Source: Patescibacteria group bacterium (GTDB lineage Bacteria > Patescibacteriota > Minisyncoccia > UBA6257 > GWB1-50-10). Taken from it: 59,785 nt of DNA. The stretch lies in assembly GCA_038065455.1 (NCBI GenBank), contig JBBTQX010000004.1:71157-130941 (forward strand), in the 5' to 3' direction. Below are positions 4,187-59,429 of this stretch, piece by piece (within the stretch, counting starts at the first letter, position 1; every line of letters begins with the position of its first letter). Made by a program: the position numbers and the translations under genes. The notes beneath the pieces are model-generated. The model was not told the DNA's origin, did no database searches, and worked only from the letters and a program-made list of their open reading frames with translations.

Positions 4187-5554
4187 ATGAACACTAACCA
4201 ACTTTGGGAAGCGGTCTTGGGAGAAATCGAAATCCAGATTTCGCGTCCGAATTTCCTGACGTGGATGAAAAACAGCCAACTGCTCCAAAAAAATGACAAA
4301 GACGGCGTGGTGTTGGTGGGCCTTCCGAATAATTTTGCGAAGGAGTGGGTCAAAAGCCGATATCATAAAATAATTCTCGGCTCTCTTAGGAATTTGGATG
4401 GCTCGATAAAAAATGTGGATTACGCGGTCACGAGCCAGAACATCGCAAACGCGCCGTTAAAAAAATTCAGAGTTATGGCGGAGGCGGAGAAGCCCCAGTC
4501 GTCGCTCATTGAATTGAAAATAGATCCCAAAACAAACTTGAACCCAAAATATCTGTTCAATTCATTTATAGTCGGCTCATCGAACGAGTTGGCTTACGCG
4601 GCCGCGCAGGCGGTGGTGAAAGATGTGGGGAAAAAATACAATCCGCTTTTCGTTTATGGCGGGGTTGGTCTTGGAAAAACCCATCTTATCCAGGCGATGG
4701 GCAATGAGATCGCGAATATTTACAAAGGTTCGGTGAATGTCCTCTACACGTCGTCGGAAAAATTTATAAACGACGTGGTTTGGGCTATCCGGAACAAGAG
4801 AATGGATGACGTGAAAAAAAGGTATCGGGATGTGGATGTGCTTATTGTCGACGATATCCAATTTATTGCCGGGAAGCCGACGACCGAACAGGAATTTTTT
4901 TATACCTTCAATACGCTTCACGAAAACAACAAACAGATAGTGATTTCTTCCGATCGGCCCCCGTCGGCAATCCCCACGCTCGAAGAAAGGCTCCGTTCCC
5001 GCTTTGAAGGGGGGATGATTGTCGATGTTTCCTATCCGGACTATGAAATGCGGCTGGCAATTCTGAAAACCAAAGTTCTCCAAAACGGAATTTTCGTGGA
5101 TGAAAAGGTTTTGGAGCAAATCGCCGCCCGGGTCCAAAAAAACATCCGGGAGTTGGAGGGGGTTTTCAATAAGGTTGTTTTTTATGAGCAGGTCAAAAAC
5201 GAAAAAGTTAGCACTAAGAAATTGGACGAAATAATCAACGAGGCTGTTCAGGTTTTGCCGAAGAATATTACCGTGAGCGACGTGATAAAATCGGTAGCCG
5301 ACTTCTTCGAGGTTCCGACTGCAGATATCACCGACCGGAGCCGGAAGCAAGAGGTGGTAGAACCCCGCCAAATCGCGATGTATTTGATGCGCGACATGTT
5401 GAAGCTGTCTTACCCCCACATCGGCGAAAAGCTCGGCAAACGCGACCATACAACCGCTATTCACGCTTGCGAGAAGATAAAAAGAGAAATGAACCAAAAT
5501 CCGGGACTCAACCAAAAAATAATGCTGATAAAAGAAAGATTGTATAAGATGTAG
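4187..5554 (+). CDS. dnaA: chromosomal replication initiator DnaA
   Basis: 455 aa with Walker A GGVGLGKTHL and the C-terminal DnaA-box binding domain (RDHTTAIHACEKI). Confidence 0.97.
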   Translation: MNTNQLWEAVLGEIEIQISRPNFLTWMKNSQLLQKNDKDGVVLVGLPNNFAKEWVKSRYHKIILGSLRNLDGSIKNVDYAVTSQNIANAPLKKFRVMAEAEKPQSSLIELKIDPKTNLNPKYLFNSFIVGSSNELAYAAAQAVVKDVGKKYNPLFVYGGVGLGKTHLIQAMGNEIANIYKGSVNVLYTSSEKFINDVVWAIRNKRMDDVKKRYRDVDVLIVDDIQFIAGKPTTEQEFFYTFNTLHENNKQIVISSDRPPSAIPTLEERLRSRFEGGMIVDVSYPDYEMRLAILKTKVLQNGIFVDEKVLEQIAARVQKNIRELEGVFNKVVFYEQVKNEKVSTKKLDEIINEAVQVLPKNITVSDVIKSVADFFEVPTADITDRSRKQEVVEPRQIAMYLMRDMLKLSYPHIGEKLGKRDHTTAIHACEKIKREMNQNPGLNQKIMLIKERLYKM

Positions 5555-5739
5555 AAAGACTGTGGAAAAAAATCTGATAAAAAATAAATGAAAAAATTAA
5601 TTTCAAAAAATATCAATAAAAAGTCCCCGAGCGGGGATTGGGATATCCACACATTACTAAACGGCAAAAAACCGAATAACTGTTATTTTAATTAAGATAA
5701 ATCGAGTAAAAAATTATACACAACACTAATACCACTACT
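5555..5739. other. candidate oriC (dnaA-dnaN intergenic region)
   Basis: DnaA-box matches: TGTGGAAAA (5561-5569, reverse complement TTTTCCACA), ATATCCACA (5643-5651) and TTATACACA (5714-5722, fits TTATNCACA). An A/T-rich tract at 5570-5620 is a possible DNA unwinding element (DUE). One further TTATACACA box lies at 4100-4108 upstream of dnaA. Confidence 0.5.
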
Positions 5740-6846
5740 ATGAATTTAATAATATTAAGAACTAATCTACTGGACGGATTGAGCTCTGTTGAACGGGCGG
5801 TTGGGGAAAACACCAATCTGCCAATTTTAAAAAATATTCTAATAAAAACCAGGGATAATAAAATCGAATTTATTTCGACTAATTTGGAGCTGGCCGTCGA
5901 GGCATCTGTTTCCGGAAAGATAATCGAAAAAGGCGAAGTAACCGTCCCATTTTCCATATTTAATTCAACCATTAAAAATCTTAACACCGAAAGAATAATC
6001 CTCGAGGAAAAAGGCAAAAAACTGACTGTGAAAACCGATAATTACGAGGCTATTATGCAGATTCACAACCCGAAAGAATTTCCGATTATTCCGTCGATTT
6101 CCAACGAAAACCACAGTATAAAAATAAACACGAAAGATTTAAAAGAAGCGATAGGGAGCGTTATTATCGCGGCCCAATATTCCGACATTCGGCCGGAAAT
6201 AAGCGGAGTTTTTATGAGTTTTTCCGACGGAGCGCTGACCTTTGCCGCCACCGACGGCTTCCGGCTCTCGGAAAGAAAACTGAACCAAAAACAAACCAAA
6301 ACCGACATAGAAGATTTTTCCGTAATTATTCCGCTCAAAACCGCTACCGAGGTTATGAGAATGTTCAACAAAGACGAGGAGGTGGAAATATTCATCGACC
6401 CAAACCAAATAATGTTCCGCGCCCAAACCGAAAAAGTTATTTCAAGACTGATCGACGGAATATTCCCCGATTATCAATCCGTCATTCCGAAACAAATTCA
6501 AAACGAGGTATTGGCCGAAAGAAATGAATTAGTGAACGCCCTGAAACTTGCGAGCGGTTTTTCCGGAAGAGCGAACGATGTCACGATTAAAATCGGCGAC
6601 GGAAATAAATTTTTGGAAATATATTCTTCCGACAATGCTTTGGGTGAAAATTGCTACAAAGTACCGGTGAAAACGAAAGGAGAAAAATTTTCCCTGGTTT
6701 TCAACTGGCGCTACGTTTTGGATGGTTTGAAAATATATAAAAGTTCAGAAATCACGATTGGTGTGAATTCGTCAGACAAGCCGGTTGTGATAAAAAGTTC
6801 AAACGAACCCGGCCTTACTTATGTAGCGATGCCGATAAAAAGTTGA
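5740..6846 (+). CDS. dnaN: DNA polymerase III beta sliding clamp
   Basis: 368 aa with three-domain clamp length and sequence, directly after dnaA. Confidence 0.95.
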   Translation: MNLIILRTNLLDGLSSVERAVGENTNLPILKNILIKTRDNKIEFISTNLELAVEASVSGKIIEKGEVTVPFSIFNSTIKNLNTERIILEEKGKKLTVKTDNYEAIMQIHNPKEFPIIPSISNENHSIKINTKDLKEAIGSVIIAAQYSDIRPEISGVFMSFSDGALTFAATDGFRLSERKLNQKQTKTDIEDFSVIIPLKTATEVMRMFNKDEEVEIFIDPNQIMFRAQTEKVISRLIDGIFPDYQSVIPKQIQNEVLAERNELVNALKLASGFSGRANDVTIKIGDGNKFLEIYSSDNALGENCYKVPVKTKGEKFSLVFNWRYVLDGLKIYKSSEITIGVNSSDKPVVIKSSNEPGLTYVAMPIKS

Positions 6847-9264: not shown

Positions 9265-9331
9265 CCAGGTAGTAGAAGTTCGGCTTCCGCCTTAGGCGGC
9301 GTTGCGAAGCGGCCGAACTTTCACTACCTGG
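9265..9331. repeat. short inverted-repeat hairpin sharing the CCAGGTAGTAGAA / TTCACTACCTGG clamp of the leader-element family (copy A)
   Basis: 20-bp arms CCAGGTAGTAGAAGTTCGGC / GCCGAACTTTCACTACCTGG carry the same A-C plus G-T irregularity as copies B and C. It lies 7 nt (9332-9338) beyond the ruvC stop codon (9339-9341). Confidence 0.75.
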
Positions 9332-37038: not shown

Positions 37039-37043
37039 ATTTA

Positions 37044-37187
37044 CCAGGTAGTGAAAATGCGATTGCAAATCGTGATTAAACCAACGATTTGTCCTTTAAT
37101 TCTAATGACCTTTTATATAATTTCATATTCTGTGTTAAGTGATAGTTCATAATTTAAATTTAACCTAATCGCATTTCTACTACCCGG
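37044..37187 (-). repeat. inverted-repeat leader element, copy C (fills the infC-rpmI intercistronic gap)
   Basis: On the coding strand, arms CCGGGTAGTAGAAATGCGATT ... AATCGCATTTTCACTACCTGG enclose a 102-nt AT-rich interior. It begins 1 nt after the infC stop and ends 5 nt before the rpmI ATG. Confidence 0.85.
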
Positions 37188-37691
37188 TTAATTTCTTCTG
37201 GCGATCTGGGCCACGAATCCCCGGCCGCCCTGTCTCGGGCTCATCGTTATCTCATGGGGAACGGAAATCATAGTAAGGAATTCCCGCATTTTCTGCAAGG
37301 CCCATTCCTTGTTTCCTTTTTCCCGGCCCCGGAGAAAGATGCCGATTTCCACCTTGTGACCCTCTTTTAAAAACTCGTCCGCCTGCTTCGCTCGGATTTG
37401 CAGATCGTTCAGCGCCGCCCGAGGACTGATGCGCACCTGCTTCAGTTCCTTCTGTTTCTGGGCCTGCTTCTGTTTTCTCTCCTCTTTGCCCTGGTAGTAG
37501 CGGAATTTGTCGAAGCTCATTATTCGCGCGACGGGCGGCTTGGCCATAGGGGCGATTTCAATGAGGTCGAGAGTCTTCTTTTGGGCCAGAGCGAGCGCGT
37601 CTTCTTTGCTCATCACGCCGAGGTTCTCGCCGGCTTCGTCTATTACCCGGAGTTCCTTGGCGATTATTTGATTGTTGATTCTGTTTTGGAT
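37188..37691 (-). CDS. infC: translation initiation factor IF-3 (probable non-AUG start)
   Basis: The ORF-track version (142 aa from GTG 37616) lacks the conserved N-terminus. The in-frame upstream sequence reads IQNRINNQIIAKELRVIDEAGENLGV, as IF-3 N-termini do. The candidate start is ATC at 37691, or ATA/ATC further in. The exact start is uncertain. Confidence 0.8.
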   Translation of the reverse strand: MQNRINNQIIAKELRVIDEAGENLGVMSKEDALALAQKKTLDLIEIAPMAKPPVARIMSFDKFRYYQGKEERKQKQAQKQKELKQVRISPRAALNDLQIRAKQADEFLKEGHKVEIGIFLRGREKGNKEWALQKMREFLTMISVPHEITMSPRQGGRGFVAQIARRN

Positions 37692-38534: not shown

Positions 38535-38778
38535 AAAATCCTCCTACTCATGAATTGGTTGATTTTAAAGCGTTTGGAAAATAAACTGCTTTTTAATTTA
38601 CCACTAAAGTCGAAAAAAGACAATTCTTCTCCCTCATCCCTCGACTATGCTCGGGATTCATCCGAAGCCACGGACTTTCGCTTTATCATCCCCCGGATGC
38701 GCGAAAGTTCCGTTCAATTCCCGTTCAACTACTAAAAACACAAATACCCGGCCTTTTATGGTTGGGTGTTTGTGTTTG

Positions 38779-39086
38779 TGGAGACGGCGGGAATTGAACC
38801 CGCGTACGGAAAGATTCGGCAAGCGTTTCTACAAGTTTAGTTCCGGTTGCCCGGAGCGGTTTTGCCTTCCTGTTTTAACGGAAGATACGGAAAGCGGATC
38901 TCTCCCGCGAACTCGCGATATGACACCGGAAGTTCCCTAGCGAGTGTCGGGGCCGATGCGGCATTACGCGAAAGCGAATGCCGGAGCTACCGTTTTATTG
39001 GCAGTTATCTTGGAAGCCGTTTTAGTGAGCGGCAGGCTCAGCTTGCTGCGTTTGCTTCATTCATCCCGTCGAAGCCGATCATCCCC
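38779..39086 (-). ncRNA. ssrA: tmRNA (SsrA)
   Basis: On the minus strand the 5' end reads GGGGATGATCGGCTTCGACGGG and the 3' end GCGGGTTCAATTCCCGCCGTCTCCA. The acceptor stem has G3-U. The tag reading frame at 39002-38964 gives ANKTVAPAFAFA*. It is adjacent to smpB. Confidence 0.85.
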
Positions 39087-46534: not shown

Positions 46535-46655
46535 CCCGTTAGAAATAGTGCGCATGCGCATAAGAAGCAAAACATGCGTTATTTTTACTGACCTTTATTG
46601 CAGATTGATTATTCATGGTTATTTATATTGATTTGCGCACGCGATTTCTAACGGG
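46535..46655 (-). repeat. inverted-repeat leader element, copy D (abuts the trpS ATG)
   Basis: Coding strand: CCCGTTAGAAATCGCGTGCGCA ... TGCGCACTATTTCTAACGGG followed directly by ATG. Length 121 nt. Confidence 0.85.
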
Positions 46656-48573: not shown

Positions 48574-48660
48574 TGGTGGGGACGGGGAGAGTCGAACTCC
48601 CAATCTCTTGCGAGAACTAGCTCCTGAAGCTAGCGCGTCTGCCAATTCCGCCACGTCCCC
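48574..48660 (-). tRNA. tRNA-Leu (anticodon CAG), CCA encoded
   Basis: The minus strand reads GGGGACG..CTAGC-TTCAGGA-GCTAG, a long variable arm, then GGGAG-TTCGACT-CTCCC-CGTCCCC-ACCA. Confidence 0.9.
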
Positions 48661-52586: not shown

Positions 52587-52657
52587 GTGGGATTAGTTTA
52601 GTGGTAGAATGTTTGTTTTCCAAACAAAGGGCAGGAGTTCGATTCTCCTATCCCGCA
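52587..52657 (+). tRNA. tRNA-Gly (anticodon UCC)
   Basis: Acceptor GTGGGAT/ATCCCGC, anticodon loop TTTCCAA, T arm AGGAG-TTCGATT-CTCCT. A hairpin GGTTGAGT-attt-ACTCAACC follows. Confidence 0.9.
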
Positions 52658-52856
52658 CACTGGTTGAGTATTTACTCAACCTCAAAGAACCCTTTGTTTA
52701 AAAGGTTTTTTGTTTGTTAGAGTACCTCCAAAGAAAAAACACGGTGTGATAAATTGCCTCAAAGGACAATAATTCCCCTCTTCATAAAAAGTTCTAACCC
52801 TTTGGGAATCTCAGGATCTACGACATCGTGGACTAGGGCGCACAAAACACATTAAT

Positions 52857-53486: not shown

Positions 53487-53638
53487 AAAAAGCCAGAAGC
53501 GTTTTATAAGAAAACCGTTTCGCAGGCCGAACGGGCACGGTTCGAGCGAAGCGAGAGAGTGAGGCCGAGAGCGAGCGCAATCCGCCGGCTGGGGCGGATT
53601 GATAGCGTGTTTTCGAGTGAAATACTTCTGGCTTTTTT
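53487..53638 (+). terminator. long composite hairpin, a terminator-like structured element
   Basis: AAAAAGCCAGAAG ... CTTCTGGCTTTTTT encloses about 125 nt of GC-rich sequence with several internal hairpins (AATCCGCC-ggct-GGGGCGGATT). Confidence 0.45.
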
Positions 53639-57674: not shown

Positions 57675-57753
57675 ATTGTTTTATATTGGTTAAATTGTTT
57701 TTCATCGACGTTTTACCGTTTTTATTATATCGCTTACAATTAGCTTAATCAAT

Positions 57754-57872
57754 CCCGTTAGAGACGTAAAACTTTAGAATTATGAATTATTCCAATTACA
57801 ATCAAGTCGAATCAGCGAAATTAATCGAGGTGTCACGGATGCGCTTTTTAAGCGCATCCGGTCTCTAACGGG
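57754..57872 (+). repeat. inverted-repeat leader element, copy E (abuts the gpmI ATG)
   Basis: CCCGTTAGAGAC ... GTCTCTAACGGG followed directly by ATG at 57873. Length 119 nt. A local perfect hairpin GGATGCGCT-tttta-AGCGCATCC lies at 57836-57859. Confidence 0.85.
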
Positions 57873-59429
57873 ATGACCAAGAAACCGGTAGTTTTGGCGA
57901 TTTTGGACGGGTGGGGGATCGGTAAGCTGGATGAATCGAATCCGATCTACCGCGCTGAACCTCCAACCATGAATTTCATCCGCGCCAACTTTCCGGCCGG
58001 AGCTCTTCAATCATCCGGCATTGCTATCGGCCTTCCGTGGGAGGAGGAGGGAAACAGCGAAGTCGGCCACCTTACAATCGGGGCGGGCAAAGTCCTTTAT
58101 CAGCATTTTCCCAGAATATCGCTCGCAATCAAGAACGGCAGTTTTTTTAAAAACAGCGTTCTTCTCACAGCTATGGAGCACGCGAAAAAAAATAATTCCA
58201 CTCTCCATTTGATGGGGCTTCTGACCGATGCCAATGTCCATGCATCTCTCGAGCATTTGGAAGCGCTTATAAAAATGGCGCGGGAGGAAAAGTGCCCGAA
58301 TATCTCCCTTCATCTTTTTTCGGATGGCCGTGACACCGACCCAAGTTCTGTTTTGAAGATTTTAGCCGGGCTTTCGGATGACCTTAAATTCGATGCCCGC
58401 TCTATTCTCGCGACCCTGACCGGAAGGTATTATGCGATGGACAGGGACAAGCATTGGGACCGGACGGAAAAAACCTATCAAACTTTGACGGGAGCGAATC
58501 CGGTAAAAATCGGTTTGGAAGAAGCGGTTAAAAAAGCCTATAGTCTCAATTTAAATGATGAATATATTGAGCCGTCGATAGTCGCTAATGAACCGCGCTT
58601 CATTGGGGAAAACGATGCCGTTATTTGTTTCAATTTTCGCGAGGATCGGATGCGCCAACTTTCCGAAACTTTCATCGATCCGAATTTCGGCGTTTTTCCT
58701 GTGAAGAAATTTACCAATCTTTTTTTCGCGACTTTCACGAACTATGATGCCCGATTCGCCGTTCCGATCGCTTTTCCGGAAGAAGCGGCGGAAAATCCGC
58801 TAGGCAAGGTGCTTTCGGATAACGGCAAGCGCCAGTTGCGGATTGCCGAGACCGAAAAATATGCTCACGTCACTTATTTTTTTAATGGTCTCAAGGAAAA
58901 ACCTTTTCCGGATGAATTCCGAATTCTCGTGCCATCGGAGAATGCCGTCCATTACGAACAGTATCCGCAAATGATGGCCGGGGCCGTGACTGATCGGGTG
59001 ATCGCAGCGCTCGCAGAAGGGACCTACGATTTTATTCTGGTGAACTATGCCAATCCCGATATGGTGGCGCACACGGGCAATTATGAGGCGACGCTGAAGG
59101 CGATTTCGATCGTCGATCAGGGAATCAAAAGAATAATGGAAAGTGTTTTGGACCAGGACGGCGTGCTTCTCATAACTTCCGATCACGGGAACGCCGAGGT
59201 GCTGCTCGATCTGAAGACGGGCGAGCCGGAAACGAAGCACAATCCGAACCCAGTTCCGTTTTATCTGGTGGGGAAGCGTTTCAGAAAACGTTCTCCCGTG
59301 GATTCGCTCGCGCCCTTGCCGGTCATCGGAATTTTGTCCGATATCGCTCCGACGATTTTGGAATTGATGAAAATACCCCAGCCGCTCGAAATGACCGGGC
59401 AGAGCCTACTCCCGCAATTATTGAGTTAA
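57873..59429 (+). CDS. gpmI: 2,3-bisphosphoglycerate-independent phosphoglycerate mutase
   Basis: 518 aa with GNSEVGHLTIGAG and TSDHGN motifs. Confidence 0.93.
   Translation: MTKKPVVLAILDGWGIGKLDESNPIYRAEPPTMNFIRANFPAGALQSSGIAIGLPWEEEGNSEVGHLTIGAGKVLYQHFPRISLAIKNGSFFKNSVLLTAMEHAKKNNSTLHLMGLLTDANVHASLEHLEALIKMAREEKCPNISLHLFSDGRDTDPSSVLKILAGLSDDLKFDARSILATLTGRYYAMDRDKHWDRTEKTYQTLTGANPVKIGLEEAVKKAYSLNLNDEYIEPSIVANEPRFIGENDAVICFNFREDRMRQLSETFIDPNFGVFPVKKFTNLFFATFTNYDARFAVPIAFPEEAAENPLGKVLSDNGKRQLRIAETEKYAHVTYFFNGLKEKPFPDEFRILVPSENAVHYEQYPQMMAGAVTDRVIAALAEGTYDFILVNYANPDMVAHTGNYEATLKAISIVDQGIKRIMESVLDQDGVLLITSDHGNAEVLLDLKTGEPETKHNPNPVPFYLVGKRFRKRSPVDSLAPLPVIGILSDIAPTILELMKIPQPLEMTGQSLLPQLLS

Follow-up and report, generated by a model that had tools for sequence, protein, structure and literature searches.

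A start-codon-clamping repeat upstream of gpmI in a Patescibacteria genome as a probable miniature copy of a GIY-YIG mobile family

Introduction

The Correia/NEMIS elements of Neisseria, RUP of S. pneumoniae and ERIC are multi-copy, non-coding, co-transcribed elements of about 100-150 bp with terminal inverted repeats (TIRs), a long hairpin and a short target duplication. They are derived from DDE insertion sequences, duplicate TA at their target, and are found at variable distances and in both orientations. Here we analyse a repeat, copy E, that precedes the gpmI gene in a stretch of 59,785 nucleotides (the window) from a Patescibacteria genome. The family to which it belongs resembles these systems as a co-transcribed MITE with a TIR foldback and a short target duplication; unlike them, it abuts and rebuilds the start codon, keeps a fixed sense orientation, and has its ends in common with a 275-bp element encoding a GIY-YIG nuclease.

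Three other systems invite comparison. Rickettsia palindromic elements (RPE) are likewise selfish palindromic repeats that persist through compatibility with gene function, but they are read through in frame as an extra peptide, whereas in the present family the insertion leaves the host ORF whole and sits ahead of a start codon that has been regenerated. REP/REPIN sequences and their RAYT genes offer a similar pairing of short, hairpin-forming, covarying repeats with one small gene, and the present family even includes minimal hairpins of 28 nt; RAYTs, however, belong to the HUH/Y1 enzymes, and REPs lie outside genes, produce no target duplications and show no association with start codons. 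Free-standing GIY-YIG homing genes (the seg genes of phage T4; the I-TevI family) are also small selfish nuclease genes that sit at host-gene edges and use host signals. Homing genes have a separate DNA-binding domain and one cognate site, and lack inverted repeats, target duplication and miniatures, whereas the nuclease considered here consists of the 86-aa catalytic domain alone, occurs at many unrelated sites, and comes with TIRs, target-site duplications and miniature copies.

Among proteins of solved structure, the nuclease is closest to the stand-alone UPF0213/YhbQ proteins (1ZG2, 1YWL), which share its size and single-domain architecture, were deposited as hypothetical proteins and have no mobility or flanking repeats on record in the sources searched. 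A search of the literature for the repeat sequence, for MITEs or leaderless genes in CPR, for GIY-YIG genes with TIRs or target-site duplications, and for COG2827/UPF0213/YhbQ returned no description of this element family.

Results

Copy E encloses the gpmI start codon in a perfect inverted repeat

The features of the locus are as follows.

57712..57740, plus strand: promoter-like site of gpmI, TTTACC-17-TACAAT, belonging to the host and outside the element (promoter scan 9/12; conserved in L191)
57752..57765, plus strand: left terminal inverted repeat, 5' strand of helix P1, ATCCCGTTAGAGAC (repeat finder; P1 covariation)
57753..57873, plus strand: copy E, consisting of T, 119 nt (CCCG...CGGG, 57754-57872) and A (family ends Y...R; empty site in L191)
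57782..57868, plus strand: ORF of 28 codons, MNYSNYNQVESAKLIEVSRMRFLSASGL, which stops at a TAA within the right repeat, 4 nt before the gpmI ATG
57837..57859, plus strand: hairpin P2, GGATGCGCT-TTTTA-AGCGCATCC (RNA fold; P2 covariation in the parent element)
57861..57874, plus strand: right terminal inverted repeat, 3' strand of P1, GTCTCTAACGGGAT, overlapping bases 1-2 of the start codon
57873..59429, plus strand: gpmI, the host gene, encoding a 518-aa 2,3-bisphosphoglycerate-independent phosphoglycerate mutase (202 relatives)

A preliminary description of this locus had reported 12-nt arms, CCCGTTAGAGAC at 57754-57765 and GTCTCTAACGGG at 57861-57872, spanning 119 nt and followed by the ATG at 57873, with a 9-bp hairpin one nucleotide (G57860) ahead of the 3' arm and the promoter TTTACC-17-TACAAT 13 nt ahead of the 5' arm. 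Each of these elements was recovered, and the repeat finder extended the perfect inverted repeat to 14 bp, with 95 nt enclosed. Since this repeat covers 57874, both the A and the T(U) of the gpmI start codon lie inside the helix, and the A of the ATG (A57873) is at the same time the terminal base of copy E.

Could the inverted repeat be a chance feature, or a lineage-specific palindrome without wider meaning? The 9-mer of the clamp, allowing up to one mismatch, is found 9 times in the window against 12 expected and is thus not over-represented, as this reading would have it. However, only about 0.016 perfect 14-bp inverted repeats at the spacing of copy E are expected by chance per window, and identical termini recur at hundreds of loci in many phyla, which refutes the idea; we assign it virtually no credence.

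The RNA of the region folds at -50.4 kcal/mol (z = -7.35; 0/200 shuffles as good). This strong fold, with the start codon within a helix, favours the reading implied by the preliminary description, namely a dedicated cis-regulatory leader RNA in which a structured 5' UTR clamps the start codon, answers a ligand or protein, and controls the translation of a housekeeping gene. Against it, the element matches no family in Rfam 15, either at the gathering score or at E <= 10.

The interior of copy E is AU-rich and contains a sole upstream AUG, at 57782, which opens the 28-codon ORF. This ORF is likely a relic of the nuclease ORF described below and could possibly act as a coupling uORF; no GIY-YIG resemblance is recognisable in its peptide (hhalign probability 6%). 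The promoter scan also marks a promoter-like site inside the element, at 57773-57802. Copy E is thus small (119 nt) and has no coding capacity for a mobility protein, as in a MITE. Its flanks carry neither a target duplication (TCAA on the left, TGAC on the right) nor an old ATG.

On the minus strand, at 57752-57724, lies a divergent promoter-like site of rny, TTGATT-17-TATAAT (10/12), whose -35 hexamer (AATCAA on the plus strand) abuts the left end of copy E and is kept in L191.

The closest relative holds an empty site

The nearest relative in the genome collection is a Patescibacteria MAG, L191, with a GpmI 92% identical to that of the window. From the rny start codon through TACAAT, about 95 nt are identical base for base between the two. 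Past TACAAT, L191 reads GAATGTAATCAAATTTTTT|ATGACCAAG, and the window reads TAGCTTAATCAAT, then the 119 nt of the element, then ATGACCAAG; the element-free junction of L191 is ...TACAATGAATGTAATCAAATTTTTT|ATGACC. This presence/absence polymorphism at an orthologous site identifies copy E, on the aligned flanks, as an insertion that separates the conserved gpmI promoter from the start codon of the gene. The copy E flank needs, in addition, a secondary deletion of about 12 nt relative to L191. Such a deletion would account for the loss of both the old ATG and the duplication, removing a decoy start.

The element is also missing from most of the 79 gpmI orthologs examined, and this, together with the empty leader of L191, argues against a dedicated leader RNA. 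Six loci (L208, L222, L224, L226, L227 and L239) carry related or degenerate copies at the same gpmI site, and in L245 the gpmI start itself is occupied by an intact related coding element, the two overlapping in ATGA. This last element (790-1104 of L245, another MAG) contains an intact 98-aa GIY-YIG ORF bounded by a third type of repeat, CCCAGTAATACAACCGC...GCGGTTGATATACTGGG, with the duplication ATGA and a TGA stop overlapping the ATG. As a separate observation, many gpmI orthologs (L191-L270), and many element-bearing host genes, show a leaderless layout: a TAnnnT box whose end lies 6 nt ahead of the ATG, and no Shine-Dalgarno motif.

Short copies form a large family inserted at start codons

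The family is bounded by YCCCGTTAGARRY...RYYTCTAACGGGR, with terminal inverted repeats of 12-14 bp. Two scans with the pattern CCCGTTAGA-N70-100-TCTAACGGG(ATG) each gave at least 120 stretches. In all, more than 200 short copies were collected, from many lineages of Patescibacteria as well as from Omnitrophota, Planctomycetota, Desulfobacterota and others. As the preliminary description had supposed from the glycolytic neighbour of copy E, the family extends beyond translation genes: dozens of unrelated genes lie downstream of its copies.

A 4-bp direct repeat (left[-5:-1] = right[1:5]) flanks 131 of the 205 copies, against 19 on average and at most 36 with shuffled flanks. The four duplicated bases lie just outside the terminal Y...R pair and read TGAA, TGGA, TGAG, TAAA, TCAA and similar. 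An ORF of at least 60 aa adjoins 126 of the 205, and in 97 of these a start codon is retained 6 nt before CCCG. The ORF-abutting copies have ATGxyT as left flank and ATGxyz as right flank, which means that the element was inserted directly after the A of the original start codon. As read from these junctions, the start is rebuilt from the terminal A of the element (G in the C...G-ended copies) and the duplicated TG, giving ATG (or GTG), and the host ORF is left untouched, with the old ATGxy staying upstream and the rebuilt start downstream. In L039, the duplication ATGCGT brackets a copy inserted at a Met codon inside lysS, close to the end of the gene, so the target is a sequence and not solely a start. 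Among the 97 retained old starts, a TAnnnT box lies 4-9 nt upstream in 39 (with a peak of 20 at 6 nt) and an SD-like motif occurs in 12, so that many of the host genes look leaderless.

Near-identical short copies are found before different genes (L079, L091), others stand in tandem, and some are nested in full-length elements; short copies therefore do move. These target-site duplications and the tandem and nested arrays weigh further against a leader RNA, as do the unrelated downstream genes and one copy that sits at the 3' end of a gene. In its favour, the helix is maintained: over 198 distinct arm pairs, P1 positions 10-12 are paired in 90-96% with four pair types each, evidence that complementarity, beyond sequence alone, is preserved. 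Readings as attC/integron, Xer or BHB-intron sequences were ruled out by the sequence polarity and the variable duplicated flank.

TIRs combined with target-site duplications are the hallmark of DDE cut-and-paste elements, which brings in a different explanation: an ordinary MITE moved in trans by a classical DDE transposase (for example of the IS1380/piggyBac type), with the GIY-YIG ORF as a passenger or addiction gene. The CCC... ends and the 4-bp T..A duplication recall what we take to be the piggyBac/IS1380 pattern, and we know of no GIY-YIG transposase established in prokaryotes. However, about 2 Mb of loci contained no DDE transposase, either between distant repeat pairs or near copies and orphan ends; the distant pairs in L129, L166 and L039, considered as candidates, contain ordinary host genes.

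Several further forms were seen. Minimal hairpin versions of 27-29 nt (CCCGTTAGARRY-loop-RYYTCTAACGGG), some with duplicated flanks, occur in L161, L176, L107, L162, L166 and L169. In L129, two inverted copies with matching flanks (2167-2258 and 4942-5033) bracket a 2.7-kb segment with the gene of a 686-aa secreted protein, which looks like an inversion or a composite structure. Ten IMG/VR viral contigs (L351-L360) also match the element pattern.

Copies lie in sense to their genes

The outer repeat is symmetric and the interior asymmetric, and orientation was accordingly scored by interior markers. Among gene-oriented copies, the NGYG motif that follows the 12-nt arm at the 5' side is in sense in 41 and antisense in 0, and CC[T/G]NNN before the 3' arm in 48 and 3; a 4-nt bulge on the 3' strand, between P1 and the second helix, gives 29 against 0. 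The census across genomes with a binomial test, which had been put forward as the check on sense orientation, thus bears the claim out (p from 4e-9 to 9e-13). Sense orientation also speaks for a leader RNA. The TAA of the right repeat closes an ORF in 60/126 sense and 21/126 antisense readings (p = 2e-7), an excess that could reflect translational coupling or a coding relic.

Two general rules were rejected. Coupling through a uORF is not a universal requirement, since 44 of 97 short copies lack an ORF that stops at the TAA. Nor is an internal sigma-70 promoter common to the family: the excess of -10-like boxes in sense is only weak (51 vs 38), and their distance from the internal ATG follows no clear pattern.

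The window holds a second copy, D, of the same family.

46535..46655, minus strand: copy D, long-stem form, before trpS (ATG 46534-46532); old start ATGAAT at 46661-46656 and target-site duplication TGAA intact

Copies D and E belong to one family and are both in sense relative to their own genes, trpS and gpmI. They share an identical outer clamp (the same nine outer bases, with D on the minus strand), as originally noted. The interior blocks ATGAAT[T/A]AT and AAG[G]TC, said to be common to both, are indeed present in D and E; they are short, however, and only GTCG[AG] is biased in orientation across the family (22 vs 5). The D-E interior as a whole is not conserved, a further point against a leader RNA. 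The junctions of copy D read catATGAAT|CCCG...CGGG|ATGAAACC, and the ORF lister extends trpS into the element. No empty site was obtained for copy D, the trpS scan having given no relative above 52% identity. Attenuation at Trp codons before trpS was considered and rejected, as the relic ORF of D contains no Trp.

Full-length elements carry a single GIY-YIG gene

Longer elements with the same ends as copy E do exist, as expected for a MITE. Full-length copies measure 273-284 bp, and their single gene encodes an 86-aa GIY-YIG nuclease of the UPF0213/YhbQ type. Two such loci, L175 (279 nt) and L123 (386 nt, with a nested short copy), have an 89-aa ORF between the same repeats that is a GIY-YIG domain (Pfam PF01541, E = 5.7e-14). 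The resemblance to the group I intron endonuclease family NCBIfam TIGR01453 is weak (E = 6e-5, below its cut-off); the nearest solved structures are the UPF0213 proteins 1ZG2 (BH0048, E = 3.6e-10) and 1YWL (EF2693, E = 9e-4). The catalytic-type positions Y3, Y5, R26, H30, E62 and N76 are invariant in 40 sequences. The GIY-YIG catalytic domain is present in the full-length form and lost in copy E.

Gene and repeats are closely integrated. The nuclease has at least 1747 homologs; among the best 120, exactly 86 aa ending in KRFLSLTG are found in 71, and in 96 the C-terminus is the right repeat itself, the last four codons, S-L-T-G, being the repeat TCT CTA ACG GGR. At 80 nuclease loci, collected from a metagenome scan with a protein profile blind to the repeats, both repeats are present at a spacing of 273-284 bp in 68. 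A nuclease ORF that fills the element, with its C-terminus formed by the right repeat, the repeats at 68 of 80 nuclease genes and the minimal 28-nt hairpin copies argue against a MITE moved by a DDE transposase. We consider this explanation unlikely.

The stop codon of the nuclease follows directly after GGR, as the first flank triplet, in 46 of the 67 distinct full-length copies (TGA 30, TAA 15, TAG 1); in most copies, then, the stop is supplied by the target and not by the element. T...A-ended copies read ATGAAT|CCCG...CGGGA|TGAA..., a junction at which the TGA that ends the nuclease shares bases with the rebuilt host ATG (A-TGA). A perfect 4-bp duplication is seen in 21 of the 67, and in many C...G-ended copies the flanks look inverted, not direct. 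Coding regions flanking the nuclease are co-oriented in 66 cases and opposed in 3.

Individual sites illustrate this arrangement. In L361, the element lies ahead of a glycosyltransferase gene (...AAAATGAAC|275 nt|GTGAAAATCGG), and the called gene begins inside it. The nuclease gene of L175 lies between etfB and etfA with a TAATG overlap; other full-length sites are between pgk and tpiA and between a ygjP-like gene and radC. Identical nuclease proteins map to one locus each across samples, and a recent multi-locus spread of identical full-length copies was rejected on this ground. GIY-YIG genes have been listed among the horizontally transferred genes of Patescibacteria (PMC12455944).

Other small GIY-YIG ORFs were found in L002 (minus 1942-2262) and L012 (minus 5458-5784), flanked by long direct repeats that consist of a tRNA-like fragment in one and a repeat of about 45 nt in the other. 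Small GIY-YIG genes may, from their flanks, use further insertion modes in these bacteria.

Copy E probably retains the ends and a subterminal helix of the parent

A DNA profile built from 67 full-length elements matches the window at the two ends of copy E only, and in collinear order. Both matches are weak: profile positions 253-278 correspond to 57847-57872 with E = 0.036, and positions 2-30 to 57754-57790 with E = 2.5, the ATGAATTAT block being aligned with the nuclease start. ATGAAT, one of the blocks noted in D and E, likewise falls on the start codon of the nuclease in full-length elements. The window itself holds no full-length copy, and no segment of it matches the GIY-YIG profile at E <= 1e-3.

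Full-length elements contain a long-range helix, P2, in which nt 70-80 (codons L-R-K-R-F) pair with nt 233-243 (L-K-R-F-L), at 89-100% per position. Synonymous sites covary (at 74/239, for instance, AT 29, GC 20 and CG 14), and 705 of 726 cells are paired against a shuffle maximum of 645. Short copies keep either the long-range P2 or a local hairpin, which stands beside the 3' arm in 47 and beside the 5' arm in 17. The clamp of copy E is the terminal inverted repeat of the mobile family, and its hairpin is the collapsed form of the long-range P2, the conserved subterminal helix of the parent; hairpin, ATGAAT block and sense orientation are all inherited from that parent.

The covariation in P2, like that in P1, had counted in favour of a dedicated leader RNA. 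With a coding GIY-YIG parent in existence, alongside the lack of an Rfam match, the empty L191 site and the duplications flanking the family, a leader RNA as the origin of the element is largely refuted, and we judge it very improbable. Copy E is instead, with good probability, a non-autonomous, internally deleted, non-coding MITE copy of the GIY-YIG mobile family.

Other repeats and RNA genes in the window

A second foldback family, CCAGGTAGTAGAA...TTTCACTACCTGG, has three copies in the window, at 9266-9330 (plus strand), 19729-19848 (minus) and 37039-37192 (minus), with a constant A.C/G.U asymmetry; the copies lie before rpsT, before rpmI and at the 3' end of a gene. It is also present in the Patescibacteria loci L060, L112, L118 and L163, with ATG/TATG duplicated at its flanks. 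Its right end would read F-S-L-P-G, comparable to the F-L-S-L-T-G of the nuclease family, and the two families may be sisters. No coding or full-length copy was found, and a viral scan gave chance matches only.

At 53487-53637, a 29-nt imperfect inverted repeat surrounds a GC-rich segment (GAGCGAAGCGAGAGAGTGAGGCCGAGAGCGAGCGCAATCC...) that resembles the sequence upstream of gpmI in L257 and possibly represents another repeat family. The following RNA genes are ordinary.

38776-39086, minus strand: tmRNA gene, with the tag ANKTVAPAFAFA
26667-26739: tRNA gene
48574-48660: tRNA gene
52587-52658: tRNA gene

Discussion

The previous observations lead to a proposal for how the element would live with its host. 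Mechanistically, the nuclease would be expressed from the promoter and ribosomes of the host gene, which would then be translated by termination-reinitiation at the A-TGA overlap, making the insertion nearly harmless. The nuclease would mediate movement, with the repeats and the subterminal P2 helix as its sites in cis; we ascribe this role to it because the element contains no other gene and no transposase was found in about 2 Mb of loci. Taken globally, we put forward as a working proposal, still tentative, that the 86-aa GIY-YIG nuclease may be the mobility enzyme of an element of about 275 bp. It would recognise hairpin-forming ends (P1, P2), land in sense orientation inside host starts, borrow the promoter, ribosome entry site and stop codon of the host, pay for them by translational coupling, and have spread with its miniature derivatives across Patescibacteria and several other phyla.

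For copy E, transcription from the conserved promoter would yield a leader of about 126 nt whose 5' end clamps the gpmI start. Ribosomes reading the 28-codon relic ORF would pass through P2 and the 3' arm to the UAA, 4 nt before the gpmI AUG, unmasking the start and being handed over to it; in addition or instead, P1 may open. The internal promoter-like site at 57773-57802 or RNase processing could provide alternative routes.

If the nuclease is indeed a transposase, no smaller autonomous DNA transposon would be known, its mechanism would form a new class, and the parent element may be categorically new. That a bare GIY-YIG domain can be the sole gene of an element with TIRs and target-site duplications runs against the idea that these nucleases only "home", and suggests a very small transposition machine.

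For annotation, hundreds of apparent structured leaders before housekeeping genes of candidate phyla are probably relics of mobile elements, and gene callers misplace starts at such elements, as for trpS in the window and in L361. The family is also a natural experiment on how a start codon buried in a 14-bp helix is used after an insert of 120-280 nt, in hosts where many genes look leaderless. Finally, termini that are nearly identical in distant phyla indicate that horizontal transfer between ultra-small bacteria and their neighbours is frequent.
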